From: a bacterium
GTDB lineage: Bacteria; Patescibacteriota; Saccharimonadia; UBA4664; JBBRNT01
Assembly: GCA_043767845.1 (NCBI GenBank)
Contig: JAYUFZ010000006.1
Span: forward strand, 6,726 to 70,725
Direction of reading: 5' to 3'
DNA length: 64,000 bases
Shown piece by piece: positions 5,949 through 31,484 of the stretch. A program made the position numbers and the translations under genes. Numbering within the stretch: the first letter of the stretch is position 1; every line of letters starts with the position of its first letter. Below the pieces are notes generated by a model. It saw only the letters and a list, made by a program, of their open reading frames with translations. It made no database searches and had not been told where the DNA came from.

Positions 5949-5961
5949 CAGGCCTGTTTTT
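5934..5961. terminator. bidirectional intrinsic terminator hairpin
   Basis: AAAAACAGGCC-ttagca-GGCCTGTTTTT, a perfect stem flanked by A and T runs, between convergent genes. Confidence 0.6.
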
Positions 5962-5979
5962 ATTGGTAAGCTTGGACTA

Positions 5980-6801
5980 CTAGATGAGGCTTAGTAGAAA
6001 GTTGACCACTGGGTTGCCTTTGGCTTTGCCATTGCTTGCAAAGTAGCTAACGCAATCGCCCTGGTTCTTAAATACTGGTGCTTCCGAAGTTTTCCAGCCG
6101 CCATTCTTGCATTCGTCCTTGGAGTGCAGTACTACTGGATCGGGCTCGAAATCGTAGGTCGTCACGGCACTCGTGGTGTTGATGACGACTTTGTCGAGGT
6201 AGCCCGCTAGGCCCGTGTCGCTAACTGTAGTATCACCGACGTTGAGGGCAATGAAGCTGATGGTGCTACCGGCAGGCATGCCTGCTAGGGTGGCGGGACA
6301 GGTGACGCTTGAACGTGCCCGCACGTTGACCGGTGTGGCGGTCGAGCTAAACGACGCTGTCGTAAAGCTGCTCGTTGAGCCCGATGTCGGCGCGTAGTCG
6401 AAGCGGCAGTCATAGTAGGTGGTTGATGCCGGTAGATTAGTATAGACATTCAAATAGAATTGGTTGGCACTAGCCGCCGTACCATTGCCGGCGATCAAAA
6501 AGTCGTAGGACAGCGAATTGAAGTCTGACACCAAGCTGTTGAGCGTCTTGGCCATGATGAACTTATCGGCTGGCGTCGCCCCAATCGGCTGCACATAGAG
6601 GCTGCCTTGCCCGATGCTGGCCTGGTCTTTGTTGAATTCATAGGGCGTTTGGTTGGACGGGTCCGGGTTAAGCAGCCAGCCTTGGTGGTTCGACGGACTG
6701 ACCACGACGGTACTTGCTGCGGCCAAGGCTGCTGGCGATATCATGAGCACCGGCAGGGCTACGGCTAGCCCGGCGGCTATTTTCTTTAATGTTTGATACA
6801 T
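5980..6801 (-). CDS. secreted hypothetical protein
   Basis: Start placed at ATG 6801 (MYQTLKK...) because an AAAGGAGG RBS lies 7 nt upstream. Signal peptide AAGLAVALPVLMISPAALAAAS. Thr/Ser-rich mature protein. No family recognised. Confidence 0.6.
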   Translation of the reverse strand: MYQTLKKIAAGLAVALPVLMISPAALAAASTVVVSPSNHQGWLLNPDPSNQTPYEFNKDQASIGQGSLYVQPIGATPADKFIMAKTLNSLVSDFNSLSYDFLIAGNGTAASANQFYLNVYTNLPASTTYYDCRFDYAPTSGSTSSFTTASFSSTATPVNVRARSSVTCPATLAGMPAGSTISFIALNVGDTTVSDTGLAGYLDKVVINTTSAVTTYDFEPDPVVLHSKDECKNGGWKTSEAPVFKNQGDCVSYFASNGKAKGNPVVNFLLSLI

Positions 6802-6851
6802 AGATTCCTCCTTTAACCTTGCTAGCTTAGCAGCCCAGCGGCCCAATGGGT

Positions 6852-6877
6852 GTAACAATTGTTACAATATTGTTACG
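6852..6877. promoter_or_regulatory. operator-like compound palindrome
   Basis: GTAACAATTGTTAC is a perfect 14-bp palindrome, immediately followed by AATATTGTTAC, a third TTGTTAC half-site. It lies about 55-75 bp upstream of the 6801 start codon in a divergent promoter region. Confidence 0.4.
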
Positions 6878-7112
6878 TTTAAACACATGGTTTTTAGGAC
6901 TATACACGTCTCAGCTCGACAATTACTTTGCCCTGCTGACGCCAGAACAAAGAGGCGGATTGGCGCGCGTCCGATCTATTATCATAGAGGTTGTGCCAGA
7001 GGCCTTGCTCGTCAGCTGGTACTTACTCGCCGCGCCGCCATCGATAGGGCGTAGCTGGGGCGTGATATCGCTTATGGATGTAGTATAATGATGCCAAAGA
7101 GGAAAGCAATGC

Positions 7113-7880
7113 ATGTTTATACCATTATCTAGCCTGACCACGCTCGTCGGAGCAATAATAATGTTTGGGGCTTGGCTCTACGTCGGTAGCCGCCTCCAGT
7201 CTAGTGCTAGTGACGCCCAACAGCCGGTTCGCATGTTCCACAAGTTCTTTTTGTTCATGGCTATCTTCATGGTCTTCATGTGGCTGCCAAACTTCTGGCT
7301 TGCTCTAGCGCCAGAACGCTTTCCGCTGGCGATGGCGATTGGCTACGTGGTAGGCCATGTGTTTCTCTATATCGCTTTTTCCTACATTGCCCGGATGACT
7401 TGCCGGATTGTACCTAGGCTGAACTCTAAAGAAAAGCTGGTAACAATTGCCTGCTACATTCTGAGTGCGGTCATCACCGCCATTACTGCCATGACCATGA
7501 TCTGGGGCAAACAGCCAGCATATGACTATATTCATGGGGTAACGCTGCTGAACGCCTCGCCGATCGTTGGACCTTCAATCGGTATCTTTGCCTTGCTCAC
7601 GGTCATCCCGGCCGCGATTTTATTCATGATACACGCTTTCAAGTCACAGGGGAGTCGCCGTGTCCGTTCGTTGCTGCTCGGTATCGGGCTATTTGTGCTG
7701 ATGACCGGCGGGCCACTGCACGACAACGCCACGACAAGCACAATGTATATCATTGCCGATATCTCAGTAATTGCCGCCATGCTGGTGGTAGGTGTCGGTG
7801 TGGTCTACCGCCTGGAACAAAGCCTGGCTTTCTCCGAGCCAACACGGCCAGTTATGGCGCCATCATCTAACACTGTCTAA
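7113..7880 (+). CDS. polytopic integral membrane protein, hypothetical
   Basis: 255 aa with about 7 hydrophobic helices. TATAAT at 7084-7089 and AGAGGAAAG RBS 7 nt upstream of the ATG. Confidence 0.6.
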   Translation: MFIPLSSLTTLVGAIIMFGAWLYVGSRLQSSASDAQQPVRMFHKFFLFMAIFMVFMWLPNFWLALAPERFPLAMAIGYVVGHVFLYIAFSYIARMTCRIVPRLNSKEKLVTIACYILSAVITAITAMTMIWGKQPAYDYIHGVTLLNASPIVGPSIGIFALLTVIPAAILFMIHAFKSQGSRRVRSLLLGIGLFVLMTGGPLHDNATTSTMYIIADISVIAAMLVVGVGVVYRLEQSLAFSEPTRPVMAPSSNTV

Positions 7881-7966: not shown

Positions 7967-9496
7967 CTAAAGCTGCTCAATAATAGTTGAGACTTCGGCT
8001 TGTACAACTTTGCCGTGGTCGCGGTCAAGCTTGCTAAAGGGCGGCACTTCTAGGTAGAACTTCGAGCCCTTATTGAGCTTGCTAGTGCACCAAACTTTGC
8101 CATTAAGCCGGTTAGCCAGCTCCAGGCAGAGGTATAACCCTAGACCGCTACCGCCAGTCTCGCGAATTCGAAAATCCTCTGAGCGGTAGAATTTCTCGAA
8201 TAAGTGCTTTTGGTCGCTCGCCGAAATACCGATGCCGCTATCTTCAACACTGTAGAGCACGCCCCCACCATGGCTCGGCTCGGCTTTGATAATGATGATT
8301 CCTTGCTTAGTGTATTTCAGGGCATTGCGCATGTAATTTTCTAAAATCTCCCGGATATGGTGCTCAGTGGAGAGGACGGTCGGGGTGCCAGCGCCGACAT
8401 TGTTCTTAATTACCAGGCCGGCGGATTCGGCTAGCGGAGTGAAGTCGCGTACCAGTTGGGCAACCATCACACCTGGGTCGACTGGCTCCAGGCGGACCTG
8501 GATATTATCGTTTTGGGCCTGGGACAGTGTCGTAAAGTCCTTGATGAGATTGGCCAAAAACAGGGTGTTGCGGTAGGCCTGCTCGACGAGCATGGCATTA
8601 TCGGCCGACAGCGAGCTCTTGGTCAAAAGAGCGGTTGAGAGAGCTGCTTCAATAATGCTGATCGGCGTCCGCAACTCATGAGAGGCAACCGAAATAAACT
8701 CCTCACGTTGCTGGTCGAGCGACTTTTGCTTGGTAATATCGCGAGCGGCCAAGATGTAGTTAGTGTCTCCCAGGTCCTCAAAACTTACCGGTGTAATGCT
8801 GATATCGAGTTCGACAGTGCTGCCGTCGGTATTAACGATCACCAGGTCACGGTGGCGTTGCGGCCCGGAATTACCTTTAACGATTGCCTGAAAAGTAACC
8901 GGCCCCTTGACCCGGTGTCGGAAGGGGAGCACATTCGATACATCTTGGCCTGCTAGGGAACCCTGCTCGGCCAGTCCAGCCAGCGAGTTGACTGCCGCGT
9001 TGGCGAGGACGATGTGCCCCTTGGCATCGATCACCAGCATCGCGTCATCGAGACTATTAAGTAGCGCCAGCAAGCGGTCACTTTCTATCCGGTTTTTAAC
9101 ACTCAAGCGCTCAAAGTCATCGCGCTCCTGGCGCTCGACGTGGGTTAGCCGCTCGGTCAGTAGCCCGATCAACAGCAGGATGAGCACACTGCCGAGACCG
9201 GCGCGTAGGGGGTCGAGAATAATAGGCGTGAAGGGGTGAGTCATGGTTAGCACCATGAGCCCGGCAAACTGGCCAGCTACCACTAGCAGCATGCCGTTGA
9301 TCGAGTACCAGTAGGTGGCCGAGATCAGAATTAGCACCAGCAAGCCGGTGTAGGGCGTATCGGCGCGACCGACCAAGAAGAGTAGTGAGAGCACGAAAAT
9401 ATTATCGATAATGAGCATACTAACCCGTGAGGCAAACAGCTTAACGCGCAGTAGGGCAGGGATGTAGCGGCTGAGATTGAAGATGACGCTGAGCAC
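7967..9496 (-). CDS. membrane sensor histidine kinase (TM-PAS-HisKA-HATPase)
   Basis: 509 aa with N-terminal TM helices. HisKA H-box SHELRTPISII and HATPase motifs (GGSGLGLYLCLELA). Confidence 0.85.
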   Translation of the reverse strand: MLSVIFNLSRYIPALLRVKLFASRVSMLIIDNIFVLSLLFLVGRADTPYTGLLVLILISATYWYSINGMLLVVAGQFAGLMVLTMTHPFTPIILDPLRAGLGSVLILLLIGLLTERLTHVERQERDDFERLSVKNRIESDRLLALLNSLDDAMLVIDAKGHIVLANAAVNSLAGLAEQGSLAGQDVSNVLPFRHRVKGPVTFQAIVKGNSGPQRHRDLVIVNTDGSTVELDISITPVSFEDLGDTNYILAARDITKQKSLDQQREEFISVASHELRTPISIIEAALSTALLTKSSLSADNAMLVEQAYRNTLFLANLIKDFTTLSQAQNDNIQVRLEPVDPGVMVAQLVRDFTPLAESAGLVIKNNVGAGTPTVLSTEHHIREILENYMRNALKYTKQGIIIIKAEPSHGGGVLYSVEDSGIGISASDQKHLFEKFYRSEDFRIRETGGSGLGLYLCLELANRLNGKVWCTSKLNKGSKFYLEVPPFSKLDRDHGKVVQAEVSTIIEQL

Positions 9497-16067: not shown

Positions 16068-16609
16068 AAACGCGCTACGTAGCCTTTCTTCGTGGCATCA
16101 ATGTCGGCGGCCACAATGTTTCGATGGAGCATCTGAGGGGGTTGATCTCCGACCTCGGTTTGAGCGAAGTGCGCAGCTACATCCAGACCGGCAATATTTT
16201 CTTTGATGCTGAGTCCAGTGACCAGCACGGCTTAAGCCAAAAGGTTTACAGCCTTCTGGAAGCTAAGCTTGGCTACCGTGTGCCGACTTTTGTGCTCACC
16301 ATTGACGAGCTGGAGCACATTATTAACGCAGCACCATTTGGATCAATCGAGCTTACCGATGACACTCGCCATATGATTGTCTTTATCAATAAACCGCTCC
16401 CCCAAGGCACAAGCTATCCCTTGCTTTCCCCAAAAGGCGACTTTGAGGTGGTGGGCGCGACTGATGACGCCGCTTACGTAGTTGTCCATTTAACCAACGG
16501 CAAATTCCCCAGCTCCAATTTTCTAGAGAAAAACTTTGGGCTAGAAACCACTGGCCGCTTTTACCACACGGCTATCAAGATACTGGCGGCTGCCCAGACT
16601 GCTAGTTAA
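16064..16609 (+). CDS. DUF1697 family protein
   Basis: N-terminal YVAFLRGINVGGHN motif characteristic of DUF1697. 181 aa. Confidence 0.75.
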   Translation: MKTRYVAFLRGINVGGHNVSMEHLRGLISDLGLSEVRSYIQTGNIFFDAESSDQHGLSQKVYSLLEAKLGYRVPTFVLTIDELEHIINAAPFGSIELTDDTRHMIVFINKPLPQGTSYPLLSPKGDFEVVGATDDAAYVVVHLTNGKFPSSNFLEKNFGLETTGRFYHTAIKILAAAQTAS

Positions 16610-18587
16610 CGCCTGAGACTTCGTAGGTATCGGGCGTGCCCGCTTTTTTCTGCGAATCGGCTGTATTCTCCAGGTGCCCTTGCAGGTAGTAGGATCCGCA
16701 GGGTTTGGTGTTGCATTTGGCGCCGGCTCCGTTGGGGCCAACGGTAGCTTGGTAAGTATAGACGTAGGTACCGGTGTTTTTTGGGTCAACTGGCATGGCC
16801 GGCAAGTAGGCGGTTACCAAGGCACTTGAGAGATTTACATAGGATGAGCCTGGAGGATAGCTGTTTTCATCGTTAAAGTAGGTCTCCAGCGCGTTTTTGA
16901 CAGCCCGCAGGTCGGATTTACGCTGGGCATCACGGGCTCGGGCGGCACTGGAGCTTGACGAGCTATCCGGTGAGCTCACCGGGTGGACTTGGTATGGGCC
17001 GCCGCTCTCTAGGCAGGCGCTGAGTACATAGTCACGCTTCGTTGCGGTGACGGCGTAGGCGGCCGAGAAAGTATTGCTAGTGATGGGAGAGGCGCAGGCC
17101 GCCGCTAGAGCGTATTTGTTCCCAAGGTTGGATGTAGCCGACGCCCCAGTATCATAGGCCGTAAGCATGCTATCGACAGCGGCCGGGGTGGCTGGATACA
17201 CGCCGCCATTGTTTGAGGCGTATTGTTCAAGGTATGAGACCATCCGGCCAGCATCATTTTTGCGGGCAAGGTCGCGGCCAGCGGCAGTGTTTGGATCGGC
17301 AGAGCTTGACTCATCGATAGTGCCCCCAAAAAAGAGTGAGATTAAATCCTCAATCGGCTTGGCATTGGCTGGGGCGGTGATGGTTACTGGCTTATTGTAA
17401 GCACTGGTGTCCAAGCTGAGCTCGGCCGTTGCCTTTTCGGCCGCCTTGGTGGTAGTAGTAGTGACATGCACGGTGAGTCGGTCAAAACCGCCGCTCGTCC
17501 ATAGATCGTAGTCGACAGCCAGGTCCTTGAAGTCGTCGGCCGTCAGGTTGATCTTACAGTCGGCAGACAGATCCTTATTGGCCTTGTCGACAGCGTCTTT
17601 GAGGCCTGCGAAGTCCAAAGACGCCTTAAAATGTGTTACCAGATGGCCGTCGATTTTTTCGAATAGGCCAACTCGCTTCGAGTTTTTGAGCGGTAATTGA
17701 GTGAGGATTTGATTACCCAGGAATGATCCAGAGCCACCTTTTTTGGTAGATAGGCATTTATTTGCTTGGGTGGTCTGGCTATCGATCGGCACTTTGTACC
17801 AGTCTTTAAGGATTTGGACTGGTAGAAAACTACTTAGTACCCCGACGCTTTCAATCTTGAAGTAAAGGTTTTTATCGGTGGTAAGTATTTCTCCTTTGAC
17901 CGATCCATTGGTACTGCCGCTGGTGGCCGCTGCCAAAGTGTTTGTGCTGCCGCCATTGCTTAGGTCGCCGTCAAGCTTGAGGTCGAGCTTAGGGTTGGTC
18001 AGATCTTTAATGTCGTAGGCGCCATTGAGCTTCACATGTAATTTATAATCGCTGGTGGTCGAGCTAACAGTGCCGTTGAAAAGTCCAGTTTTGCTCATTG
18101 AAACTTTTACCAGGTAGTCTGCCAGGGCCTGCTTGGGAGCGATGAAAAGTCCGTGATATGCAAGTGCGCCACTAGCCACCAGTAAGACTACTACAAGGCC
18201 GAGGATCAGCCACTTGAGGCCGGGTTTAGCCTTGAGCGGGACGGGTGGGAGCATGGCGGAGACATTGCTCTGCGTCCAGTTGACTGGGGTGGCAACCACT
18301 TGTCCAGGTACCGAAACGGGCGACTGTGCGGTCGTGGGAGGTGTAGATGAAGGCTGTGTTGGGAGTATTGGCTGGGAGTAAGGTACGGCTGGAGCCGCGG
18401 CGATCGGTAAAGCCTGCGGGCTGACTGTTGGGTGGGTGATAGCTGGTGTCATGGCCGCGGGAGCGACGGGCGGGGCAGCTGGGGGCGGTTGCAGTGTGTT
18501 AGCAGGCGGGGGCGTAGTGGGCAGTTGAGCGGGCGGTTCTACGGACGGCGTGGGCGTGGTACTTGGTACGGCTGGTTCTGGAGGCAT
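16602..18587 (-). CDS. Pro-rich, TM-anchored surface protein with type-IV-pilin/pseudopilin-like globular domains
   Basis: 661 aa with a Pro/Thr/Ala-rich N-terminal region and a single TM (LKWLILGLVVVLLVASGALA). Two blocks resemble the post-helix part of GspG/type IV pilins (ARKNDAGRMVSYLEQYASNNGGVYP and ARDAQRKSDLRAVKNALETYFNDENSYPP ... DPKNTGTYVYTYQA ... CNTKPC). No prepilin G-F-T-L-I-E leader is present. Confidence 0.65.
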   Translation of the reverse strand: MPPEPAVPSTTPTPSVEPPAQLPTTPPPANTLQPPPAAPPVAPAAMTPAITHPTVSPQALPIAAAPAVPYSQPILPTQPSSTPPTTAQSPVSVPGQVVATPVNWTQSNVSAMLPPVPLKAKPGLKWLILGLVVVLLVASGALAYHGLFIAPKQALADYLVKVSMSKTGLFNGTVSSTTSDYKLHVKLNGAYDIKDLTNPKLDLKLDGDLSNGGSTNTLAAATSGSTNGSVKGEILTTDKNLYFKIESVGVLSSFLPVQILKDWYKVPIDSQTTQANKCLSTKKGGSGSFLGNQILTQLPLKNSKRVGLFEKIDGHLVTHFKASLDFAGLKDAVDKANKDLSADCKINLTADDFKDLAVDYDLWTSGGFDRLTVHVTTTTTKAAEKATAELSLDTSAYNKPVTITAPANAKPIEDLISLFFGGTIDESSSADPNTAAGRDLARKNDAGRMVSYLEQYASNNGGVYPATPAAVDSMLTAYDTGASATSNLGNKYALAAACASPITSNTFSAAYAVTATKRDYVLSACLESGGPYQVHPVSSPDSSSSSSAARARDAQRKSDLRAVKNALETYFNDENSYPPGSSYVNLSSALVTAYLPAMPVDPKNTGTYVYTYQATVGPNGAGAKCNTKPCGSYYLQGHLENTADSQKKAGTPDTYEVSGVN

Positions 18588-18692: not shown

Positions 18693-18782
18693 ACGTGGCG
18701 ACTTCCGCTTCCGGCGGGTAGTTCCTTCACCCACGCACAAGCGTGCCAACAGAAAGCTGCTTGCTTGAAAACACAGCGTCCC

Positions 18783-20585
18783 ATGCCAGCCCGCCGCCTG
18801 CTCCTGCTCTGTCTATTGGCCGCTTCGGCGGTCCTGATGGCGAGCTGCAGCATCGGCCTCAACCAGTCAATCTTGCTGCGTAGCGACATGCCCACCCAGG
18901 GTATGGAGGCCAACGTGGCTTATCGCATCACCTCGGCTCCCGATGGCAAGAGCGAGATCAACGAAGCGGTGCTCAGTGGCATGAACGATGTCAGCCCGCT
19001 GCCCTTGCTGACCACCACCTTCGGCAAGGGCGCCGGTACCGTGACCCAGCGCGTCCAAGCAACTGCCAGTGATGGCAGCGCCATGAACGTTCTCGGCATG
19101 ACCAAGCAACAGCTCGGTTTTGGCCTGCACGATGCCCTGACCGTCGACTCCGCCACCTACGAACTGCACGACGCCGCTGGCCTTCGGGTTTGCGGCGCCA
19201 AGGTTCGGATGCTGTGGTTGCCCGACGCTGCCAAATTCATTGCCGGCGATACCCGCAGCTGGGACGCTATCTGGTACTACGATGTACCGTGCGCAGCCGA
19301 CCAGCCCAAGCTGGACATTTCCCGAGCCACCTTCCACGCCCTGGTCATCACCCAGCAGTTCGCACCAAGGATCACTGGCAAGCCGTTGTTCTACAACCGC
19401 GGCAACAGCGTGACTATCGTTGGCGGACAGCCCGCCGCCTTTGCTGGTGGCTGGTGGACGCGCAACGCCCGCCCGGACAACGCCAACAGCATCCTCGGCG
19501 CCCAGGCTCTGGTAAAGAACCTGGTTGTCGATCTCGACCACAACGGCTGGATGAAGTTCAGCCCGAGTGGCCCGTACAAGGATAGCGCCTTGGTCTACTC
19601 CGCCGGCGACGCCGACGTCTACGCCAGCTTCAACCGCGCCTTCTTGGATCGCCAAGTCGACTACATCGTCAACTTCCGCTCCAGCCCCAGCCGCCCCTGG
19701 CGCAAGATCGTCGTCCATCCCATCTACAATCTGGAGTGGAATGACTTTGCCCAGAACTGGGAGGCCAGTAAGGGCTTCAACCCGTTGCATATCGACGACC
19801 GGCTGGACAAGAATGGCTTCCCCAAGGACGCCAACGACAGTGTCCTCAAGGAAGTCGAGACGGCTGGCTGCCAGAACTGCCCCAACCCGACGCTGGAGCA
19901 AATCCAGATCAAGGACGGCGACAGTGGCAAGGTGCTCTACGCCATGACCATCCGCGGCTACATCGGCGCCGAAAGTTCGATGGTGATGTTTGGCCAAGTG
20001 CCAGGCAGCCTGCAGAGCTTCAAGGACACGGCTTCCACCGAGGCCAAGACCACCGGCCTGTCCAGCTGTCCGATCCGCTACGACGACAAGGGTGAAGCCC
20101 TCGACGCCGACAAGCAGATCTCGGCCGGCGACTGTGCCAGACTGCTCCGTGAAGGTGCACTCTGGCAGCTGATTACCGAGGATCCGCACAAGTTTGGCTT
20201 CGACCTGGTCGGCCAATTCCGGGTGCGCGATGAAAGCCTCTGGAAGCAGGTTTGCTCCGGATCGGGTGACTCGCTGAGTTGCTCAACTATCCGCCAGACC
20301 AGCGACCTCAAGGCCAACTACCTCTTCGACGGCCTCGACGTCTCCAAACCCTGGACCGTCTTGCAGCTGCTCGGTGAGGTAGGCGTTCGCACGCTCGGCC
20401 TGAGCTACGCCAGTGGCCAGTTCGCTGGTTCCGGCCTGCTGTTCGGCATGTCGCAGCCGCTGATGCGCCAGCAGTATTTCGGGGGCATTACCGACCCGGA
20501 AATGGTCTTCGGCTTCGACGCCCGAGCCATGCAGCTCCCCAACACCCTGGGGCAGGCCGAAAACCTGCTCTACCCACCCAAGTAG
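18783..20585 (+). CDS. lipoprotein of unknown function, compositionally foreign (high GC)
   Basis: Start chosen at ATG 18783 (MPARRLLLLCLLAASAVLMASC, lipobox LMASC); the ORF also opens at TTG 18765. The gene is about 63-65% GC with strong GC3 bias (CTG/GCC/GGC/AAG codons) against roughly 50-55% flanks. No family recognised. Confidence 0.7.
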   Translation: MPARRLLLLCLLAASAVLMASCSIGLNQSILLRSDMPTQGMEANVAYRITSAPDGKSEINEAVLSGMNDVSPLPLLTTTFGKGAGTVTQRVQATASDGSAMNVLGMTKQQLGFGLHDALTVDSATYELHDAAGLRVCGAKVRMLWLPDAAKFIAGDTRSWDAIWYYDVPCAADQPKLDISRATFHALVITQQFAPRITGKPLFYNRGNSVTIVGGQPAAFAGGWWTRNARPDNANSILGAQALVKNLVVDLDHNGWMKFSPSGPYKDSALVYSAGDADVYASFNRAFLDRQVDYIVNFRSSPSRPWRKIVVHPIYNLEWNDFAQNWEASKGFNPLHIDDRLDKNGFPKDANDSVLKEVETAGCQNCPNPTLEQIQIKDGDSGKVLYAMTIRGYIGAESSMVMFGQVPGSLQSFKDTASTEAKTTGLSSCPIRYDDKGEALDADKQISAGDCARLLREGALWQLITEDPHKFGFDLVGQFRVRDESLWKQVCSGSGDSLSCSTIRQTSDLKANYLFDGLDVSKPWTVLQLLGEVGVRTLGLSYASGQFAGSGLLFGMSQPLMRQQYFGGITDPEMVFGFDARAMQLPNTLGQAENLLYPPK

Positions 20586-21527: not shown

Positions 21528-22208
21528 CTATTTGGGCAGTTTCAGGCCGTAGATGAGCGCCATAATTTCTTGGGCAGTCTTATTGCTGCAGTCCATCGGC
21601 CGGCCAATAGTGATACTAGCCCGTCTGCCGAGCAGGTGCCCGGCGGTCCACTGGATGTGCATAGGGATAATCAAGACGTCGGGTTGCTTGGCTAATACCG
21701 CTACCCCGTGCTTAGCATAGGCAGTTCCCGGGATAGTGCGTCGTCCCTCAGGGAAGATATTGATGGTCTGATGTTTGGACAACAAGGATTGCGCCAGTTC
21801 CAGGCCATAGGGCATGCTATCGTGGCGGGTGGCAGGGAAGCAGCCAAAGGCTACCAAAAATGGATAGTAATACCATTTGGTGAAGAAAAATGAGTACACA
21901 AAAGAGCGGATTGGCGCCAGCTTTCGCCAGCTAGCAAAGGGGATTTGGCCGCTTAGTATAAAAGGGTCGAGCATACTTTGATGGTTGGGGGCAGTCACAT
22001 AGCCCTTATGAGGATCAATATCGTCCGGCTTCAGCAGAATATGGACTTTATCCACAAACAGCCAACCCAAAACACGCGGAATAAGCCACAGCATCACAAA
22101 CTGCACGGCTATCATGAAAGGTAAAAAGACCGCGTTCTGCAGTGCTGCCCCGGTAGTTTCTTGCCTAGGTTTTTCAACTGGAGTAGGAGCTAAAAAAGTG
22201 TTAGCCAT
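21528..22208 (-). CDS. plsC: 1-acyl-sn-glycerol-3-phosphate acyltransferase (PlsC family)
   Basis: NHQSMLD (HxxxxD) and FPEGRR acyltransferase motifs, with an N-terminal TM. Confidence 0.8.
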   Translation of the reverse strand: MANTFLAPTPVEKPRQETTGAALQNAVFLPFMIAVQFVMLWLIPRVLGWLFVDKVHILLKPDDIDPHKGYVTAPNHQSMLDPFILSGQIPFASWRKLAPIRSFVYSFFFTKWYYYPFLVAFGCFPATRHDSMPYGLELAQSLLSKHQTINIFPEGRRTIPGTAYAKHGVAVLAKQPDVLIIPMHIQWTAGHLLGRRASITIGRPMDCSNKTAQEIMALIYGLKLPK

Positions 22209-22723: not shown

Positions 22724-23539
22724 ATGGTTTCTCAAGTTAAACAATTATTCCGTTATCGGTCACTACTCACGAACAAGCAGCCCGATAATCTTGAGGTTAG
22801 AGTTATCAGTGACCCAAAATCACTCTTAGCGGCTAGGCAGCTTCATGCCCGGCGTTATTTACGGTGGGGTTACATTCAAGAAAGTGATATTGCAAGCAAC
22901 GGTACGATGAACCGGCATGCAGACCCATATGCTGGACACTCGATATACTTTGCAGTATTCGACAAATCCAAGGCGGGCACTCCACTCGTCGCTGTATCGC
23001 GACAGATCAAGCTGCGTCCAGGATCAAAATCTCACCATGATCTCCCAACCCTAGCTAACGTTCCACTTGGGAAAGAGGCCATAGAAGAGATCGAACGATA
23101 TACGCTGGGGGAATGTGTGGAAATCTCAGCACTCGTCAAAGACTCTGGAGTATCATCACTCGCCCCGCTCATGCTGTACAGGGCCATGTGGCATTATTCA
23201 CTTATGAACGGCCACAAGTTGTGGTTAATGGGTGTTGATCGAAGCGTTTATCGTCTTCTGGACGCTGTATTCGACAAATCTATCGAGCGAATTGGCGGAG
23301 AAGCATTTTACATGGGCAGTTTGGTAATTCCAGCTTCGGTGAGGATAGGCAATACGGTTGATAATATCATTCACGACCTCACCAGCAAGAACTTTACTGC
23401 CCTATTGTGGCAAAGGGATCTCGCACTGTTTTTGTGTGATGGGTTACCAAAGCAAGTTTTGAGTCCGGGTCAAATGAAACTTCTTGAGAAATCTGGGCAG
23501 CATGGCAAGCAGGCCTTGGAAGGCTTGGCCTATGAGTAG
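22724..23539 (+). CDS. hypothetical protein, possibly LuxI/FeeM-like N-acyltransferase (autoinducer-synthase superfamily)
   Basis: 271 aa. The N-terminal segment ARRYLRWGYIQESD...DPYAGHSIYFAVFD...VAVSRQIKL...VEISALV loosely follows the LuxI/FeeM R..F..LGW / E.D / D / R / E.S pattern. The assignment is tentative. Confidence 0.5.
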   Translation: MVSQVKQLFRYRSLLTNKQPDNLEVRVISDPKSLLAARQLHARRYLRWGYIQESDIASNGTMNRHADPYAGHSIYFAVFDKSKAGTPLVAVSRQIKLRPGSKSHHDLPTLANVPLGKEAIEEIERYTLGECVEISALVKDSGVSSLAPLMLYRAMWHYSLMNGHKLWLMGVDRSVYRLLDAVFDKSIERIGGEAFYMGSLVIPASVRIGNTVDNIIHDLTSKNFTALLWQRDLALFLCDGLPKQVLSPGQMKLLEKSGQHGKQALEGLAYE

Positions 23540-24413
23540 CAAGGAAAACGAGCGCCGCTTTGCCCGCAACCTAGGCTTTATTTCAGTTGATGAGCAGCGG
23601 AAACTTGCCGACGCGCGGGTTGGTATCGCGGGTTGTGGTGGCGATGGCGGGCAAGCTGCAGAAGCTTTAGCCCGTATGGGAGTGGGCGCTTTTGTATTAG
23701 CTGATCCTGAAATATTTGAACTGGAGAATATCAACCGCCAGTGCGCGGCAGAGGACGGAATAGGCGAGAACAAGGCAGAAGTAATCGCTAGACGTATTGC
23801 AAAGATTAACCCCCTAGCCAAGATTCGGGTTTATACCGAAGGGATTACGATTGCCAATATTACGAAATTTGTTGATGCGTCAGACATAATCGTAGACGAG
23901 TCGGACTTTACTGTTCCACACATTGGAATCGCCCTTGCCCGCGAAGCCCGCCGTCAGCACAAGGTTGTAGTTATGGGCTTAAACCTAGGCTTTGGAGGAC
24001 TTGTAACCTCATTTGTCCCGGGTCGAATGACGCTCGAGCGACGCTTAGGATATAGTACGACATCTGCAATTTCGGAAATAGAAGCTGATTCCAAAACCAG
24101 CGATTTACAGCCCTGGCGCTGGATACCAGCACTACCCGGTTATACTGACCTTGGCGCTTTGGCGCGCGTGGTAAGGGGTGAGATATCTGTACCTTCGGTC
24201 GTTCAGGGTGTGTTGCAGTGCGCAGCCATGACTTCAACTGAAGTCTATAAACACCTTACGGGAGGTAAAGGAGTGCATGTAGCGCCCGTATACCAGTGGA
24301 TCGATCCCAAGCAGGGTACCCAACGTCGTGTAAGAGCCTCGCGCATATCCTTTTACTCGACTTTACTGCGGATTGCAGCTAGGCGGTCACTCGGTCGTCG
24401 TAAAGTCTCCTAA
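23532..24413 (+). CDS. ThiF/MoeB/E1-like adenylyltransferase with C-terminal extension
   Basis: ATG 23532 overlaps the upstream stop by 8 nt. Nucleotide-binding VGIAGCGGDGGQAAEALARMGVG and LADPEIFELENINRQ motifs. No CxxC zinc knuckle. About 110 extra C-terminal residues. Confidence 0.8.
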   Translation: MSSKENERRFARNLGFISVDEQRKLADARVGIAGCGGDGGQAAEALARMGVGAFVLADPEIFELENINRQCAAEDGIGENKAEVIARRIAKINPLAKIRVYTEGITIANITKFVDASDIIVDESDFTVPHIGIALAREARRQHKVVVMGLNLGFGGLVTSFVPGRMTLERRLGYSTTSAISEIEADSKTSDLQPWRWIPALPGYTDLGALARVVRGEISVPSVVQGVLQCAAMTSTEVYKHLTGGKGVHVAPVYQWIDPKQGTQRRVRASRISFYSTLLRIAARRSLGRRKVS

Positions 24414-24449
24414 GTTTACCGAGAACTATTTGCTATACTAATAGCAGTT

Positions 24450-26669
24450 ATGCTTTTAAAGTTTATTGTGCTTGCCGTCGTTTGTCTGCTAAGCAGCGTT
24501 CTTGGCATATTTGTATTTATTAAAAACCCCAAAGATAAGACTTTTCGTGCTTTTGGTGGGTTTGTGCTTGCGACGAATCTCTGGCTGCTCTCTGACTTCT
24601 TAAGTAATAGCTTGTCGCTCCCAAAATCGACGGTTCTGCTCATGAACTATTTAACTCTGGCATTCCCGGTATTAGCCTTATATGTTTTGATCCTTTTCTG
24701 CCTCTACTTAACTAAAAGATTAGCGGGCATCCCACACCTCGGATTGCAGGTCATTGCCTTGGCAGCAGCAGTAGTTACAGCCCTCTGTTTTACTCCATAT
24801 TTTGTTCAAGATGTAGTCGCCAGTCAGGGCATCTATAAGATTACTTTTGGCCCCCTGATCAATATTTATTTCGGATACATTGTAGTAGGTATTATTATTG
24901 TAGGCATTGTCCTGGGGCGCAGTTATTTCTTGGCCAGAGCGGCTGAGCGAACGCGGCTGGGCTATGTCATTGCCAGTATTATTTTGGCCTTGGGCAGCGC
25001 ATTTATTACCAACTTGGCCGTTCCATTGATAGCCCACAATTTTAGTCTAGTAATCTATGCTCCCATTTCCGCACTTATCCTGACGATTGGATTCTCATAC
25101 GCTATTGTCAACCAGCGTCTGTTTGATATACGAGCAATTATTGCCCGCTCGGTGACCTATTTATTCCTCCTGGCAACACTGGCGACTATCTATGGCTTCA
25201 CTCTTTTTGGAATCTCTCAGCTGTTCTTCACGGACCGCAGCTCTTCACCGGTTGAGATCGCAACCTATATTGTCTTGGCGCTCATTCTATCATTTACGTT
25301 TCCGACCCTTCGGCAATTTTTTGAGCGTACGACTGACCGCATTTTCTTCAAAAATCGCTACGATACACAGGACGTTCTGGACAATGTGGGCAAGGTGCTA
25401 GTCCAGGAAATGGATATCGATGCTATGTTGCGAGATGTTCTTGAAGTAATTTGCAAACAAGTACATATTTCTCATGGCCAGTTCTTCATTTTTAACAGCG
25501 ATCGGATTTATAAGGTGGCTCACTTTGGCCCACTGCCTCAGCGACTCATTGTTGTACCAGAACTAGAGCATTTGCATAAACAGTTAATCCTTGCTGATGA
25601 AGTGGCCCCCGGAAAGCTCAAAGATATAATGAGTAGCCACAGCATTCGTTTGAGCAAAAGACTCCACACTAAGGACGATTTTGTCGGATTCTTACTTCTA
25701 GGCGACAAACTAAGTGGCGATATCTACTCAGATCAGGATGTGAAACTCATCGAAATCATGTCCTCGAGTCTAGCCATCGCTATCCAGAACGCCAAATCCT
25801 ATGAACAAATCCGCCAGTTCAACATCACTCTCCAAGAAAAAATCGAGCAGGCTACTAAGCGTTTGCGGGTGGCAAATGCCAACCTCAAGAGCCTCGATAA
25901 GGCCAAGGATGAGTTTATTTCGATGGCTTCACATCAGTTGCGCACGCCGCTGACGACCATTAAGGGCTATGTGTCGATGATTCTTGAGGGCGATACGGGG
26001 CCTATTACCGATGAGCAGAAGGAATTCCTGAACTACGCTTTTGCTGGTTCGGAGCGGATGGTTAGCTTGATCTCAGACTTGCTCAATGTCTCGAGGCTAG
26101 CTGCCGGCCGATTTATAATTGAGCGAACGCCGACCGATATCGTGGCGGTGGTGGCCGATGAGGTTCGTCAGCTGCAGTCGCACGCCGCAGCCAAAAACCT
26201 GCAACTGGTCTTTACGCCGCCTGCCACGCCGCTGGCTACTATCTCGATCGATGAGAACAAGACCAGGCAAGTCATGATGAACTTCATCGACAACGCCATT
26301 TACTACACTAAGGAAGGCAAGGTTAGCGTGGCAGTCGGCGAGAGCAAGGATATGGTTCGCTTTACCGTTACCGATACGGGCATCGGCGTGCCGAAGGACT
26401 CGCAGAACAAACTCTTTACCAAATTCTACCGTGCCGGCAATGCCCAAACTGTCCGACCGGACGGCACCGGGCTGGGCCTCTACTTGGCCAAGCGGGTTAT
26501 CGAGGACCAAGGTGGTACAATAGTCTTTGAAAGCCATGAGGGCAAGGGCAGCACGTTCGGGTTTGAAATACCGCTCCATGTGCCAGCCAGCACCGCGCCC
26601 AAGGCCACTGTCATTATTAGTAAGAAACATAGCCAGCCTGTCGCACTCAAGACAGAGAAGAAAGAATGA
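24450..26669 (+). CDS. sensor histidine kinase with N-terminal polytopic (7TM-type) sensor and GAF domain
   Basis: 739 aa. About 300-aa hydrophobic N-terminus, GAF-like middle, HisKA SHQLRTPLTTIKGYVSMIL, HATPase GTGLGLYLAKRVIEDQGG. Confidence 0.85.
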   Translation: MLLKFIVLAVVCLLSSVLGIFVFIKNPKDKTFRAFGGFVLATNLWLLSDFLSNSLSLPKSTVLLMNYLTLAFPVLALYVLILFCLYLTKRLAGIPHLGLQVIALAAAVVTALCFTPYFVQDVVASQGIYKITFGPLINIYFGYIVVGIIIVGIVLGRSYFLARAAERTRLGYVIASIILALGSAFITNLAVPLIAHNFSLVIYAPISALILTIGFSYAIVNQRLFDIRAIIARSVTYLFLLATLATIYGFTLFGISQLFFTDRSSSPVEIATYIVLALILSFTFPTLRQFFERTTDRIFFKNRYDTQDVLDNVGKVLVQEMDIDAMLRDVLEVICKQVHISHGQFFIFNSDRIYKVAHFGPLPQRLIVVPELEHLHKQLILADEVAPGKLKDIMSSHSIRLSKRLHTKDDFVGFLLLGDKLSGDIYSDQDVKLIEIMSSSLAIAIQNAKSYEQIRQFNITLQEKIEQATKRLRVANANLKSLDKAKDEFISMASHQLRTPLTTIKGYVSMILEGDTGPITDEQKEFLNYAFAGSERMVSLISDLLNVSRLAAGRFIIERTPTDIVAVVADEVRQLQSHAAAKNLQLVFTPPATPLATISIDENKTRQVMMNFIDNAIYYTKEGKVSVAVGESKDMVRFTVTDTGIGVPKDSQNKLFTKFYRAGNAQTVRPDGTGLGLYLAKRVIEDQGGTIVFESHEGKGSTFGFEIPLHVPASTAPKATVIISKKHSQPVALKTEKKE

Positions 26670-27124
26670 CTCGTATTACCTCACCTGCTGACTCACTCGA
26701 CAATCGCCCTGGTGCCGTGCTCTCCAACGGCAAAACTGTGCTAGTGGCCGAGGACGACCCTTTTATTTCTCGGATGTATGAAACCAAGCTGACCAACTCT
26801 GGCTATTATGTGGTGCTAGCCAATAATGGTCGCGACGCCTACGAGAAGATCAAGGACACTAAGCCGGATTTGCTGCTGCTCGACATAAATATGCCTGAGC
26901 TCTCGGGGTTTGAAGTCTTGGGCGCCCTGAACGGCGACGGCTACGATATGAGCACCACGCCAGTCATGGTGCTGACCAACTCCAGTAATATGGCCGACCG
27001 TAAAGTTGCCGAAAGCTATGGTGCCGAATACATGATCAAGGCCGAGCTTACCCCTCGCGCCGTACTGGAGCGCATCAATGCCAAGCTGGGAATCGACGCC
27101 CCGGGTACGGCGGTGGGCCAATGA
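26666..27124 (+). CDS. single-domain response regulator (receiver only)
   Basis: ATGA overlap with the HK stop. VLVAEDDPFI...LLLLDINMPELSGFEVL receiver motifs. 152 aa, with no output domain. Confidence 0.85.
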   Translation: MTRITSPADSLDNRPGAVLSNGKTVLVAEDDPFISRMYETKLTNSGYYVVLANNGRDAYEKIKDTKPDLLLLDINMPELSGFEVLGALNGDGYDMSTTPVMVLTNSSNMADRKVAESYGAEYMIKAELTPRAVLERINAKLGIDAPGTAVGQ

Positions 27125-27300
27125 TCACGGCCCTAGCTACCGCAGTAATTGTATTTCTTACGAGCTTTATTGGTCTTAACTTGGTCGAAGTCCAGATCCA
27201 TCGCATGACCAAGAACAAAGATACGAGCTACCGGACTGGGGTTTGGGTCTTTGCCTTGCTACTAGCCGGCTATGCCTTCGCTAGCAGCCTGGGTCGCTAG
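27121..27300 (+). CDS. 59-aa two-helix small membrane protein
   Basis: Not in the ORF track because it is under 60 aa. ATGA-coupled to the receiver gene. MITALATAVIVFLTSFIGLNLVEVQIHRMTKNKDTSYRTGVWVFALLLAGYAFASSLGR. Confidence 0.4.
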   Translation: MITALATAVIVFLTSFIGLNLVEVQIHRMTKNKDTSYRTGVWVFALLLAGYAFASSLGR

Positions 27301-29008: not shown

Positions 29009-30103
29009 ATGCATAAATTATTAAAGTACAGTGTGATTGCGGTGGCGTTGGTCAGTCTGGGGTCAGCAGGCTCAGCCCTTGCAGATAGCAATGGTAGTCA
29101 ATATGGCAATGGCCAAAACTGGTCAAGCTCATGGAACAATACCGGCTACAGTGGATCAATGAACACCACAAACCAATCAGCTGGAAGTGGCAATGCCAAC
29201 TCTAGCACTGGCTGGAACAGCTGGAACCCAACAGCTTGGCAGCAAAACGGCCAAGGCTTTGGCAACTGGTGGAATGGCTTGCTCGGCCAGATGAATCAAA
29301 ACATTGGATCATGGCACAACACCGGCAATAACACTAGCTGGTGCCCGAGTGGCGACAATTGGCAAAACAATTGGTCGAATTGGGATCCACAGATGTGGCA
29401 GCAGAACGGTTCATCGTGGGCAAACTGGTACGGCCAAATGCTCGGCCACATGACCAGTAACTACAACGGTTGGCAAAACGGCTGGAATGCTGGAAATAAC
29501 AATACAGGTAATGCCTGGAACAACGGCAACAGCGGTACCGGAGTACAAGTCTGGGGCGGTAGCGGCGCAGGTGTACAAAGTGGCAATGGCCAAGCAGGTA
29601 CCAATGCCACAATCGGCACAACTGGCCCAGGTTCCTACAATGTGATCGATACTAATCGAAACAATAGCCAATACATTGAAAACAGCAATACGGTCGCAGT
29701 CAATAATCGCAGCACCCAGGACGCCATGAGCGGCAGCGCCAACGTCAGCGGCAATACTATTGGCGGCAATGCCTCTACTGGCTCTGCCGGTAACAACAAC
29801 ACGACGGCTACCCAAGTGGCTGTCTCAAACCCGACGATGTCTGGCGGGCAAGGCACGGGGTCTAACGGTAGCGGCTACTATGCTATCGGCATAACAGGAC
29901 CAAACTCCACCAACCGTATTCAGGCGAGTGATTCGTCGAATTACTATTCGCGGACAAGCAACAATGTGCAAGTATCGAACGATAATAATCAATACGCGCA
30001 CAGCGGTAATGCCAATGTCAGCGGTAATACTATCGGTGGGAGCGCCACGAGTGGCTCAGCCTATAACAACAACTCAGCGCAAACCGGCGTACAAATCCAC
30101 TAA
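29009..30103 (+). CDS. secreted Asn/Gly/Trp/Gln-rich low-complexity repeat protein
   Basis: Signal peptide AVALVSLGSAGSALA. The first half holds W-containing short repeats (NWxxxW, WQQNG). The second half holds two long imperfect repeats (...SGSANVSGNTIGGNASTGSAGNNNT... and ...SGNANVSGNTIGGSATSGSAYNNNS...). Confidence 0.75.
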   Translation: MHKLLKYSVIAVALVSLGSAGSALADSNGSQYGNGQNWSSSWNNTGYSGSMNTTNQSAGSGNANSSTGWNSWNPTAWQQNGQGFGNWWNGLLGQMNQNIGSWHNTGNNTSWCPSGDNWQNNWSNWDPQMWQQNGSSWANWYGQMLGHMTSNYNGWQNGWNAGNNNTGNAWNNGNSGTGVQVWGGSGAGVQSGNGQAGTNATIGTTGPGSYNVIDTNRNNSQYIENSNTVAVNNRSTQDAMSGSANVSGNTIGGNASTGSAGNNNTTATQVAVSNPTMSGGQGTGSNGSGYYAIGITGPNSTNRIQASDSSNYYSRTSNNVQVSNDNNQYAHSGNANVSGNTIGGSATSGSAYNNNSAQTGVQIH

Positions 30104-30263: not shown

Positions 30264-31484
30264 ATGGCGAAAACAAAAGGTCACATCCATAAAGCCCATA
30301 TCGTACTCGACTACCTCGTTCTGAAGTCGGGGATAGCGCTGATGAGCTTTTTGGCGGCTTATCTCTTCCTGGCATCCTCGCCGATCCCTAAGCTTTTTGC
30401 GGCTAGCACGCCGACCATCGCTGTGCCGAGCTACTTTTACCCAGGCCCACTTTGGACGCAAATGAGCAGTGCTGGTTCAAAGGTCGGAATCGCCATTATC
30501 AACCCTAGCAGTGGCCCGGGGGGTTCGGCCGACCCGAATTATGTCGCTGCCATTAACGCTGCCCGAGCTAGGGGTATCAAGGTGCTCGGCTACGTCTCGA
30601 CTGGCTATGGAGCTAAGGGCTCTGTCTTAAGCGACATTAGCACCTACTACTCACAATATACGCTTGATGGCATATTCCTCGATGAAGGTCCGACCGACTG
30701 CGGGTTGGTCAGCCAGTACCGGGGCTATGTCGCTGCGATCCGCGCCAAGGGCGGGATAAGCGTTATCAATCCTGGTACCATGCCTCAATCGTGCTGGGGT
30801 GATGTTGGCGATACACTGATGGTTTATGAGGGCAATGCTTCATCGTACTTAGCCTTCACGCCACCGGCCTGGACCAAAAACTATCCACCGACCAAGTTCT
30901 GGCACGCTGTTTACGAAGCGTCGGCTAGCCAGCTAGCTGCTATCATGAAGCACGCATCCGATATTGACGCTGGCTACATTTATGTGACGGACGATAACAA
31001 TACGCCAGCTGCAGGCGAAACCTATGGCAACCCATACGACACACTACCGAGTTACTGGTCAGACGAAGTTGGTAGTGCAGCCACAGCGCCCACGAACCCC
31101 TCAAACCCGACCAACCCTAGCAACCCAACGAACCCAGCGCCCGTCGTACCCGATATAGTAACAAAACCAGCCGACGGTAAGAAATTCACCTGTGACGCGA
31201 CAAGTATCTCGACCCCTGGCTTGCTGGACCTACTCAAGGCTGCCGGCTGTGAGGGCAGCGATAGGAACCCGATATTTTCGCTGCTGCAAGCCGTCATTAA
31301 CTGGCTGACTGGTATTCTGGGCGGCCTGGCCGTGCTGGCTATTATTGTGGCTGGTATCCAATATATTACCTCCCAGGGCTCACCCGACGCGCTCAGGCAG
31401 GCTAAATCACGGATTACCGCGGCGGTTGTCGGTTTGATTATACTGAGTATTATGTTCTTCCTGCTCAAGCTGATCGGCATCTAA
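30264..31484 (+). CDS. spherulin-4-like (GH-like) extracytoplasmic domain fused through a PT-repeat linker to a C-terminal two-helix pilin/VirB2-like membrane hairpin
   Basis: N-terminal TM/signal, a domain with the YFYPG...W pattern of the spherulation-specific family 4, a (P-[TS]-N)x5 linker (encoded by a 15-bp tandem DNA repeat near 31093-31137), then AVINWLTGILGGLAVLAIIVAGIQYITSQGSPDALRQAKSRITAAVVGLIILSIMFFLLKLIGI. Confidence 0.7.
   Translation: MAKTKGHIHKAHIVLDYLVLKSGIALMSFLAAYLFLASSPIPKLFAASTPTIAVPSYFYPGPLWTQMSSAGSKVGIAIINPSSGPGGSADPNYVAAINAARARGIKVLGYVSTGYGAKGSVLSDISTYYSQYTLDGIFLDEGPTDCGLVSQYRGYVAAIRAKGGISVINPGTMPQSCWGDVGDTLMVYEGNASSYLAFTPPAWTKNYPPTKFWHAVYEASASQLAAIMKHASDIDAGYIYVTDDNNTPAAGETYGNPYDTLPSYWSDEVGSAATAPTNPSNPTNPSNPTNPAPVVPDIVTKPADGKKFTCDATSISTPGLLDLLKAAGCEGSDRNPIFSLLQAVINWLTGILGGLAVLAIIVAGIQYITSQGSPDALRQAKSRITAAVVGLIILSIMFFLLKLIGI

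Follow-up and report, generated by a model that had tools for sequence, protein, structure and literature searches.

A predicted FeeM/LuxI-fold acyltransferase and a ThiF-family enzyme share an operon with a two-component sensor in a Saccharibacteria-type bacterium

Gene organization of the operon

The gene cluster described here lies in a 64-kb stretch of bacterial DNA (contig JAYUFZ010000006.1; hereafter, the window) that is placed in the Saccharimonadia by its synteny with, and 33 to 66% identity to, loci of named metagenome-assembled genomes (MAGs). Between positions 22724 and 27300, five genes are packed tightly on the + strand, and they encode a candidate N-acyl amino acid synthase, a ThiF-family protein and the components of a two-component sensor.

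22724-23539, + strand: synthase-like gene, 271 aa; predicted FeeM/LuxI-fold GNAT, N-acyl amino acid synthase-like, of a divergent subfamily
23532-24413, + strand: ThiF-family gene, 293 aa from the ATG; PF00899; stand-alone protein, a putative adenylating enzyme from the clade of the oxazolone cyclases
24450-26669, + strand: sensor histidine kinase, 739 aa; HisKA_7TM, HisKA and HATPase_c, with a weak GAF-like middle region
26666-27124, + strand: receiver-only response regulator, 152 aa; PF00072
27121-27300, + strand: membrane peptide, 59 aa, with two hydrophobic segments; recognized by hydropathy and its ATGA junction

The first two open reading frames (ORFs) share 8 nt (ATGAGTAG), with the ATG of the ThiF gene at position 23532 preceding the stop codon of the synthase gene. 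This translational coupling had been pointed out in the original prediction, which was made from the letters of the window alone, and it is borne out by a public contig that encodes identical proteins, whose independently made gene calls agree with the ORFs of the operon. The ThiF and kinase genes are separated by 36 nt, and ATGA overlaps are found at both the kinase/receiver and the receiver/59-aa peptide junctions. No promoter-like or terminator-like matches were found within the intergenic junctions of the operon. The G+C content is 46 to 47% at 22 to 26 kb, where the operon lies, versus approximately 52% for the window.

Predicted fold of the 271-aa protein

On its own, the 271-aa protein matched no Pfam family. 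PF00765 (Autoind_synth) gave no match, and PF21926 (FeeM) gave 12.6 bits (E 0.12), which is below its gathering threshold of 27 bits. Among the NCBIfam models, the match to TIGR03694 was marginal. The motifs that had been quoted in support of an autoinducer-synthase/N-acyl-amino-acid-synthase pattern are present in the protein, and the LuxI E-x-S-R motif reads E-I-S-A/G in its subfamily, where the Arg is replaced by Ala or Gly (E-I-S-A in the window protein).

A word-indexed search for relatives returned eight matches, from which the family seemed rare; an exhaustive search with a profile of the narrow family of the window synthase (A1, an alignment of eight members) returned 645 cluster representatives at E≤0.001. 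PF21926 was matched weakly by seven of the eight aligned members (best E 1.1e-6) and PF13444 by three. When the A1 family was aligned with the acyltransferases that adjoin ThiF relatives in other lineages (alignment A3), one Asp and one Arg were invariant and E-x-S was near-invariant. Neither the window synthase alone nor the narrow A1 profile gave a meaningful match to PDB sequences; the acyl-homoserine lactone (AHL) synthases were reached with the broader A3 profile only, which matched LasI, BjaI, RpaI, TofI, MesI and EsaI with E values of 1.4e-10 to 6e-4.

An alignment-based AlphaFold model of the 271-aa protein (pLDDT 85, pTM 0.85) was compared with PDB structures using Foldseek. FeeM (2g0b) was the first match (E 3.2e-8) and LasI (1ro5) the second, followed by BjaI, TofI and generic GNATs. 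The profile and structure comparisons both uphold the LuxI/FeeM-like fold that had been proposed. The 271-aa protein is predicted to be a FeeM/LuxI-fold acyltransferase that is LuxI/FeeM-like at the level of superfamily and fold and lies below both Pfam family thresholds.

The ThiF-family protein

The second protein of the operon matches PF00899 with an E value of 8.5e-34 over residues 11 to 269. As originally described, it is E1-like, with a nucleotide loop (GxGGDGG) and without a CxxC motif, its only cysteines being found at positions 35, 71 and 230. The subfamily is conserved along its full length, and the ATP-binding and adenylation residues R12, N13, GxGGDGG, D58, N68-R69-Q70, K81 and D122-E123 are invariant; judged by these residues, the adenylation site of the window protein is intact. 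Its structural model (pLDDT 93) has the ThiF/MoeB fold and aligns with Escherichia coli ThiF over 271 columns. Both this alignment and the span of the Pfam match show that what had been taken for a C-terminal extension of roughly 110 aa is part of the fold.

Comparison with NCBIfam models ranked PRK08223 (166 bits) above PRK14851, PRK14852 and ThiF. The three PRK models span residues 6 to 268, while matches to the ThiF, MoeB and TcdA models are confined to the Rossmann half at the N terminus. The C-terminal half is matched only by PRK08223, PRK14851 and PRK14852 and is a subfamily-specific part of the fold. PRK14851 and PRK14852 represent ThiF-oxidase fusions, since they are longer models whose later positions are matched by Acg-family flavin mononucleotide (FMN) oxidoreductases. 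A metagenomic ThiF-oxidase fusion (L033; related loci are cited here by L numbers) clears the PRK08223 cut-off with 379 bits, and the ThiF proteins of L017 and L006, which have a separate oxidase, rank the NCBIfam models in the same way as the window protein. Over 280 residues, the latter shares 44% identity with the ThiF protein of L017, a tyz-like locus. In a rough neighbor-joining tree, oxidase-linked ThiF proteins are interspersed among oxidase-less ones, and the oxidase-less form is shown to be common within this clade. By sequence, the window protein is thus assigned to the clade of the OxzB/TrzS-type ThiF-oxidase fusions, an assignment set by the models and the oxidase-linked loci. It has 293 aa and no fused oxidase domain, versus approximately 680 to 720 aa for the ThiF-nitroreductase fusions that partner synthases (OxzB/TrzS).

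The best match among PDB sequences was TcdA, the tRNA ct6A synthase (E 2e-16). TcdA, MccB and PaaA are ThiF-family cyclodehydratases that share the adenylation core with the window protein, and TcdA-type enzymes offer an analogy for adenylation followed by cyclization on the carboxylate of an N-acylated amino acid (PMC12596934). These enzymes differ in acting on tRNA or peptide substrates with other partners, and the match covers the N-terminal half only. AclA of Tenacibaculum discolor (PDB 9egb and 9egc, “in complex with substrate”), which has the ThiF fold, ranks with the nearest neighbors of the window protein in both structure and sequence; a literature search on AclA (9egb) found no paper.

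Comparison with characterized pathways

The original prediction held that no LuxI-like plus E1-like pairing had been described. Such pairings are in fact known from OxzA/OxzB, TyzA/TyzB/TyzC, TrzA/TrzS and clusters that combine an N-acyl amino acid synthase, a ThiF protein and a nitroreductase (PMC12479983). The Pseudoalteromonas rubra pair OxzA/OxzB gave the first demonstration of the logic of a synthase plus a ThiF-type enzyme (bioRxiv 10.1101/2020.06.11.147165), and TrzA/TrzS a later one (PMC12856293). In Mycobacterium tuberculosis, TyzA, which has FeeM and BjaI as its closest structural neighbors, catalyzes the N-acylation of Tyr or Phe; its N-acyl product is desaturated by TyzC, which is a nitroreductase-superfamily flavin oxidase, and TyzB, a 318-aa ThiF homologue, carries out an ATP-dependent cyclization that gives the acyl-oxazolone (PMC10404671). 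The D217A substitution in TrzS abolishes cyclization, and a saturated cyclized intermediate is observed with TrzS R540A or with limited O2 (PMC12856293). The catalytic Asp motif is intact in the window ThiF protein as the counterpart of TrzS D217, which supports the reading of this protein as a cyclase. A 2025 review names OxzB as the only one of the ThiF-like enzymes for which a small-molecule substrate is known (PMC12596934).

Like the Tyz system for acyl-tyrazolones (TyzA, TyzB and TyzC being Rv2336, Rv2338c and Rv2337c), the window is predicted to encode a separate FeeM/BjaI-fold synthase and a ThiF-type cyclase of approximately 300 aa that stands alone (PMC10404671). In contrast with it, the window has no TyzC-type oxidase, its synthase comes from the divergent E-I-S-A/G subfamily, its synthase and ThiF genes are coupled on one strand where tyzA is divergent from tyzBC, its operon adds a two-component system, and its host is a Saccharibacteria-type bacterium of the candidate phyla radiation (CPR). 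A tblastn search of the window with the oxidase of L017 gave no match at E<1, and the neighboring genes carry other domains.

OxzA/OxzB and TrzA/TrzS (Rv1356c/Rv1355c) share with the window a synthase directly upstream of a ThiF protein of the same clade in one operon. With its oxidase disabled, TrzS gives a saturated cyclized intermediate. The window ThiF protein has no fused oxidase domain. The stieleriacine and thalassotalic acid clusters and those of kyonggic acid, of the form NasY-ThiF-nitroreductase with or without a methyltransferase, also combine a synthase and a ThiF protein with optional tailoring enzymes (PMC12479983), and the methyltransferase, whether it takes the place of another tailoring gene or is added to it, recalls the sister loci L008, L009, L012 and L013. 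These clusters differ from the window in that a nitroreductase is present, the products are dehydrotyrosines and no kinase linkage has been reported (PMC12479983).

Conservation and variation among related loci

The eight GTDB loci found through the synthase family are labeled Candidatus Saccharimonadia, Saccharimonadales or Saccharimonas, with the exception of L011 (DATLJN010000054.1). Although labeled Magnetospirillaceae, this locus shows FolD, receiver, PlsC and synthase in the order typical of Saccharimonadia, and the contig was probably mis-binned. The genes are usually arranged as FolD, a receiver (− strand), a PlsC-type acyltransferase (− strand), the synthase, a variable slot, the 7TM kinase, a receiver, sometimes a small peptide, and a polysaccharide deacetylase (− strand). 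The slot holds a ThiF gene in the window, L001, L003/L005, L006 and L010, holds a class-I S-adenosylmethionine (SAM) methyltransferase gene in L008, L009, L012 and L013, and is empty in L002.

L008:8820-9806, L009:8758-9483, L012 ~8783-9475 and L013:8674-9414: slot methyltransferases, between synthase and kinase; recorded together with proteins P0024, P0043 and P0102

Synthase-methyltransferase fusions exist among some members of the synthase family. The slot methyltransferase was considered as evidence for capping of a carboxylate and was then downgraded, given that in Stieleria clusters the targets of the methyltransferases are the ring or the oxygen of tyrosine (PMC12479983). One lineage has, between its synthase and ThiF genes, an insertion that encodes a hydrophobic protein of 157 aa without a Pfam match (L003:6798-7271). 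L006 encodes, on the − strand and co-oriented beside PlsC, an Acg-family FMN oxidoreductase (6276-7223) that is 41% identical to the oxidase of L017. Unlike the window, L006 has the full set of synthase, ThiF protein and oxidase.

A metagenome scan with the ThiF alignment, followed by local annotation, gave 16 loci, in 14 of which a synthase is encoded directly upstream of, or fused to, the ThiF relative. L030 is a 15th such locus, where a 271-aa ORF upstream of the ThiF gene has synthase motifs recognizable by eye only and was missed by the profile search with hidden Markov models. The pair is found as well in a Firmicutes MAG (L016), as a 200-aa LuxI/FeeM protein and a ThiF protein with GGDEF-HD proteins on both sides (854-2776 and 4947-7148), and in a Mycobacteriales MAG (L017), as an oxidase, a ThiF protein and a fusion of FeeM with a cyclic nucleotide monophosphate (cNMP)-binding domain. 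Co-occurrence of the two genes therefore extends well beyond this genome, and together with the fold of the synthase it speaks against both refutations that the original prediction had envisaged.

The synthase-ThiF-kinase arrangement is kept, without a PlsC gene, in seven loci whose synthases belong to other subfamilies (L014, L018, L021, L023-L025 and L029); L014 and L018 represent two further lineages with this set. The upstream divergent receiver is kept in most of the PlsC-less synthase-ThiF-kinase loci. In L023, a single 554-aa ORF (5128-6792) fuses the synthase (FeeM/Acetyltransf_5/Autoind_synth, residues 56 to 183) to the ThiF domain (residues 268 to 499), and the 7TM kinase comes next. 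This fusion supports the view that the synthase and the ThiF protein work together.

Other signaling domains are associated with the pair elsewhere. The synthase is fused to a cNMP-binding domain in L017 (6876-8024) and L033 (1083-2519), both of which are ThiF/oxidase clusters, the latter pairing the synthase-cNMP protein with the ThiF-oxidase fusion. These fusions suggest that synthesis of the lipid is under cNMP control. GGDEF and/or HD-type proteins of c-di-GMP turnover are encoded 1 to 2 kb from ThiF relatives in L026 (1677-4079) and L028 (237-1331), and one follows a distant ThiF gene in L036 (3539-4243), a locus where no synthase was detected.

The kinase, the receiver and the 59-aa peptide

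The kinase matches HisKA_7TM with 36.3 bits, above the Pfam cut-off of 28.6, together with HisKA and HATPase_c. A crude hydropathy scan showed approximately eight hydrophobic segments in residues 1 to 290, and the membrane sensor is described as multi-pass, with about seven to eight transmembrane (TM) segments. The 7TM sensor of the original prediction is upheld, while its GAF domain is a weak, sub-threshold match (E 0.024). The other two downstream genes were correctly described: the receiver matches PF00072 (E 1.2e-20) and has no output domain, and the 59-aa product of the ATGA-coupled last gene shows two hydrophobic segments in the hydropathy scan. The receiver is 62 to 66% identical to its counterparts in L001, L003, L006, L010 and L013, and copies of the peptide were detected by tblastn in L006 (E 2e-9) and L010 (E 2e-12).

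Kinase orthologues lie directly 3' of the synthase and tailoring genes in L001, L003, L006, L008-L010, L012-L014, L018, L021, L023-L025 and L029. The kinase stays behind the synthase whether the tailoring gene is a ThiF gene, a methyltransferase gene or none, and this adjacency spans three synthase subfamilies. From the occurrence of the genes across the related loci, the conserved core consists of the synthase, the tailoring enzyme and the 7TM kinase, without PlsC or the 83-aa ORF described below.

In the LuxM/LuxN and CqsA/CqsS pairs of Vibrio, the gene of an autoinducer synthase lies beside that of a multi-pass membrane histidine kinase that binds a lipophilic signal. The window shares with these pairs the juxtaposition of a synthase gene and a kinase gene, the sensor of the kinase being a TM-helix bundle that has hardly any periplasmic domain. 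This likeness is limited to layout and does not imply homology between the synthases or between the sensor domains.

Genes upstream of the synthase

The original prediction overlooked a divergent gene for a PlsC-type acyltransferase and assigned the ORF between it and the synthase gene to a divergently encoded helix-turn-helix (HTH) protein resembling sigma region 4.

21528-22208, − strand: PlsC-type acyltransferase; PF01553, HX4D motif, one TM segment
22316-22567, − strand: 83-aa ORF that fills the 516-bp gap between the PlsC and synthase genes

The PlsC-type protein matches PF01553 with an E value of 2.7e-13, and its gene divergently adjoins the synthase gene in all 11 distinct related loci that have the synthase subfamily of the window (L001-L013). 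It is absent from L014, L016-L018 and L021-L029, which have other synthase subfamilies, and its membership of the module is uncertain. The 83-aa ORF gave no Pfam match at E≤10 and no meaningful PDB match, and it has no counterpart in the related loci, where the gap between PlsC and synthase genes measures 53 to 187 bp. The assignment as a sigma-region-4-like HTH protein was rejected, and the ORF may be a lineage-specific insertion or no gene at all.

Proposed pathway and alternative explanations

Our reading of the operon is that of a two-enzyme lipid-tailoring pathway joined to a two-component sensor, which we consider somewhat better supported than its denial. In the first step, the 271-aa enzyme would N-acylate an amino acid from an acyl thioester donor, as suggested by its fold and homology. 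In the second, the ThiF protein would adenylate the free carboxylate of the N-acyl amino acid and bring about its cyclodehydration, by homology to TyzB, OxzB and TrzS. The predicted product is a saturated, reactive 2-alkyl-oxazol-5(4H)-one (azlactone) or a capture product of the activated species. Because no flavin oxidase is encoded here, a saturated azlactone or a derivative of it would be expected instead of a conjugated tyrazolone or tryptazolone, and since such a saturated oxazolone is a reactive acyl donor, the end product may form from it. In the third step, to which the conserved gene order points, the 7TM kinase, together with the receiver and the 2-TM peptide, would respond to, or regulate, the lipid. 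The synthase and the membrane sensor would then form a pair in the LuxM/LuxN or CqsA/CqsS arrangement.

A further proposal, that the lipid made by the synthase and the ThiF protein (an oxidase-less acyl-oxazolone or derivative) is a self-made signal with the 7TM kinase as its receptor, is tentative and on balance doubtful. The conserved order synthase-ThiF-7TM kinase is consistent with the make-and-sense module of the original prediction, the sensing half of which we infer. The sensing reading agrees with the associations of the pair with GGDEF-HD proteins and cNMP-binding domains elsewhere, as well as with published speculation on oxazolone signals: in M. tuberculosis, c-di-GMP genes adjoin trzAS, and the authors who described TrzAS raise a signaling role (PMC12856293).

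Several points weigh against the pathway and sensing proposals. For both FeeM (E 0.12) and Autoind_synth, the window synthase falls short of the Pfam threshold, and its ExSR motif lacks the Arg. Every characterized system has a flavin oxidase and the window has none, although one could be encoded elsewhere in the genome, beyond the 64 kb seen. A saturated azlactone is hydrolytically labile, and no oxazolone is reported from the producers of stieleriacine, even though they have a ThiF gene (PMC12479983). Most of the kinase-linked loci are probably of one lineage, with shared FolD-receiver synteny, so that the conserved order may be inherited and not functionally maintained; inherited synteny is a serious alternative to the sensing link. 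As a rule, Saccharibacteria are not known to make fatty acids, which puts the acyl donor in question.

The best surviving alternative accepts the biosynthesis and takes the product as a structural or stress-related membrane lipid, with the kinase monitoring the envelope or an unrelated input and the gene order being inherited synteny. This is consistent with the behavior of tyrazolones and tryptazolones, which accumulate mainly inside cells and have a stress-linked role, with no signaling phenotype found (PMC12856293; bioRxiv 10.1101/2020.06.11.147165). In the same loci, synteny extends to the flanking FolD and polysaccharide deacetylase genes, which shows that gene order is generally conserved in the lineage, and the receivers have no output domain that would indicate a regulated target. 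However, even where the synthase subfamily and the tailoring enzyme differ, the kinase remains immediately downstream, across junctions that overlap or are short, and unrelated lineages place other signaling domains beside or onto the pair. We regard this explanation as unlikely, though far from negligible.

A second alternative is an aminolipid of the OlsB/OlsA or GlsB/GlsA type, in which FeeM-like N-acylation would be followed by addition of a second acyl chain by PlsC, with the ThiF protein or methyltransferase changing the head group. PF13444, which three of the eight family members match weakly, is of the same GNAT clan and includes the OlsB-type enzymes. The invariable adjacency of PlsC in the 11 loci of this synthase subfamily, and the flavin oxidase of L006 co-oriented beside it, would fit such a route. 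Yet no locus of the other subfamilies that keep synthase, ThiF and kinase has PlsC, which could be a housekeeping lysophosphatidate acyltransferase, and the NCBIfam model for OlsB is not matched by the 271-aa protein. An aminolipid of this kind is therefore improbable.

The match of the synthase profile to solved AHL synthases (E down to 1.4e-10), with LasI as the second-best structure, raises the case of a true SAM-using LuxI-type AHL synthase beside a functionally unrelated ThiF protein. This is very improbable, given the missing PF00765 match, the replaced Arg of ExSR, FeeM as the best structural match and the absence of a LuxR-type receptor among the operon neighbors, where a kinase and a receiver are found instead. 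In addition, the ThiF protein needs a free carboxylate, which an AHL lacks, and its coupling to the synthase is translational, widely conserved and in one case a gene fusion.

A classical E1-like role in activating a ubiquitin-like or sulfur-carrier protein (ThiS/MoaD type) would suit the ThiF/MoeB fold, the intact adenylation site and the ThiF and MoeB models covering the N-terminal Rossmann half, but it is hardly tenable: domain annotation of the neighbors found no ubiquitin-like, E2 or JAB gene, as the original prediction had noted, no beta-grasp partner with a C-terminal Gly-Gly was found at 20.7 to 28.5 kb or in the related loci, ThiS/MoaD, a rhodanese domain and CxxC are missing, the C-terminal half matches PRK08223/14851/14852 only, and the constant partner is an acyltransferase.

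Other genes of the window

Four further ORFs were recorded. That at 30264-31484 (+ strand) encodes a 406-aa protein with an unusual fusion of Spherulin4 (E 1.3e-37) to a C-terminal T4SS_pilin/TrbC type IV secretion pilin domain. The 364-aa product of 29009-30103 (+ strand) has a signal-peptide-like hydrophobic N terminus and an extremely high content of N, G, S and W, contains recurring “SGNANVSGNTIGG”-like segments and has no Pfam match. Two large ORFs, at 16602-18587 (− strand, 661 aa) and 18765-20585 (+ strand, 606 aa), also have no Pfam match; the hydrophobic N terminus of the 606-aa product ends in Cys, as in lipoproteins, and the G+C content of that stretch is 57 to 59%.

Implications

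While the enzyme pairing has precedents, what is new here is an oxidase-less synthase-ThiF cassette in one operon with a two-component sensor in a Saccharibacteria-type genome. The conserved link to the sensor and the modular swapping of ThiF protein, methyltransferase and oxidase are new and testable, and they bear on the role of acyl-oxazolones, which has been termed “a major unresolved question” (PMC12856293). The locus and its relatives are a concrete candidate for this role, with a kinase retained through changes of synthase and tailoring enzyme. They also extend the synthase-ThiF pathway to Saccharibacteria-type bacteria and Firmicutes, and the oxidase-less form implies uncharacterized chemistry leading to a saturated azlactone or to products of the activated N-acyl amino acid.

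Literature searches on Saccharibacteria or Patescibacteria with N-acyl amino acids, LuxI or autoinducer synthases found nothing relevant. If the signaling proposal is true, this would be, as far as these searches go, the first autoinducer-type circuit described in Saccharibacteria/CPR, and with this kinase the acyl-oxazolone/N-acyl amino acid class would gain its first assigned receptor. The exchange of ThiF protein, methyltransferase and oxidase between loci would then diversify the signal, and a pair of lipid signal and sensor would bear on the perception of host and kin by these ultra-small episymbiotic bacteria.

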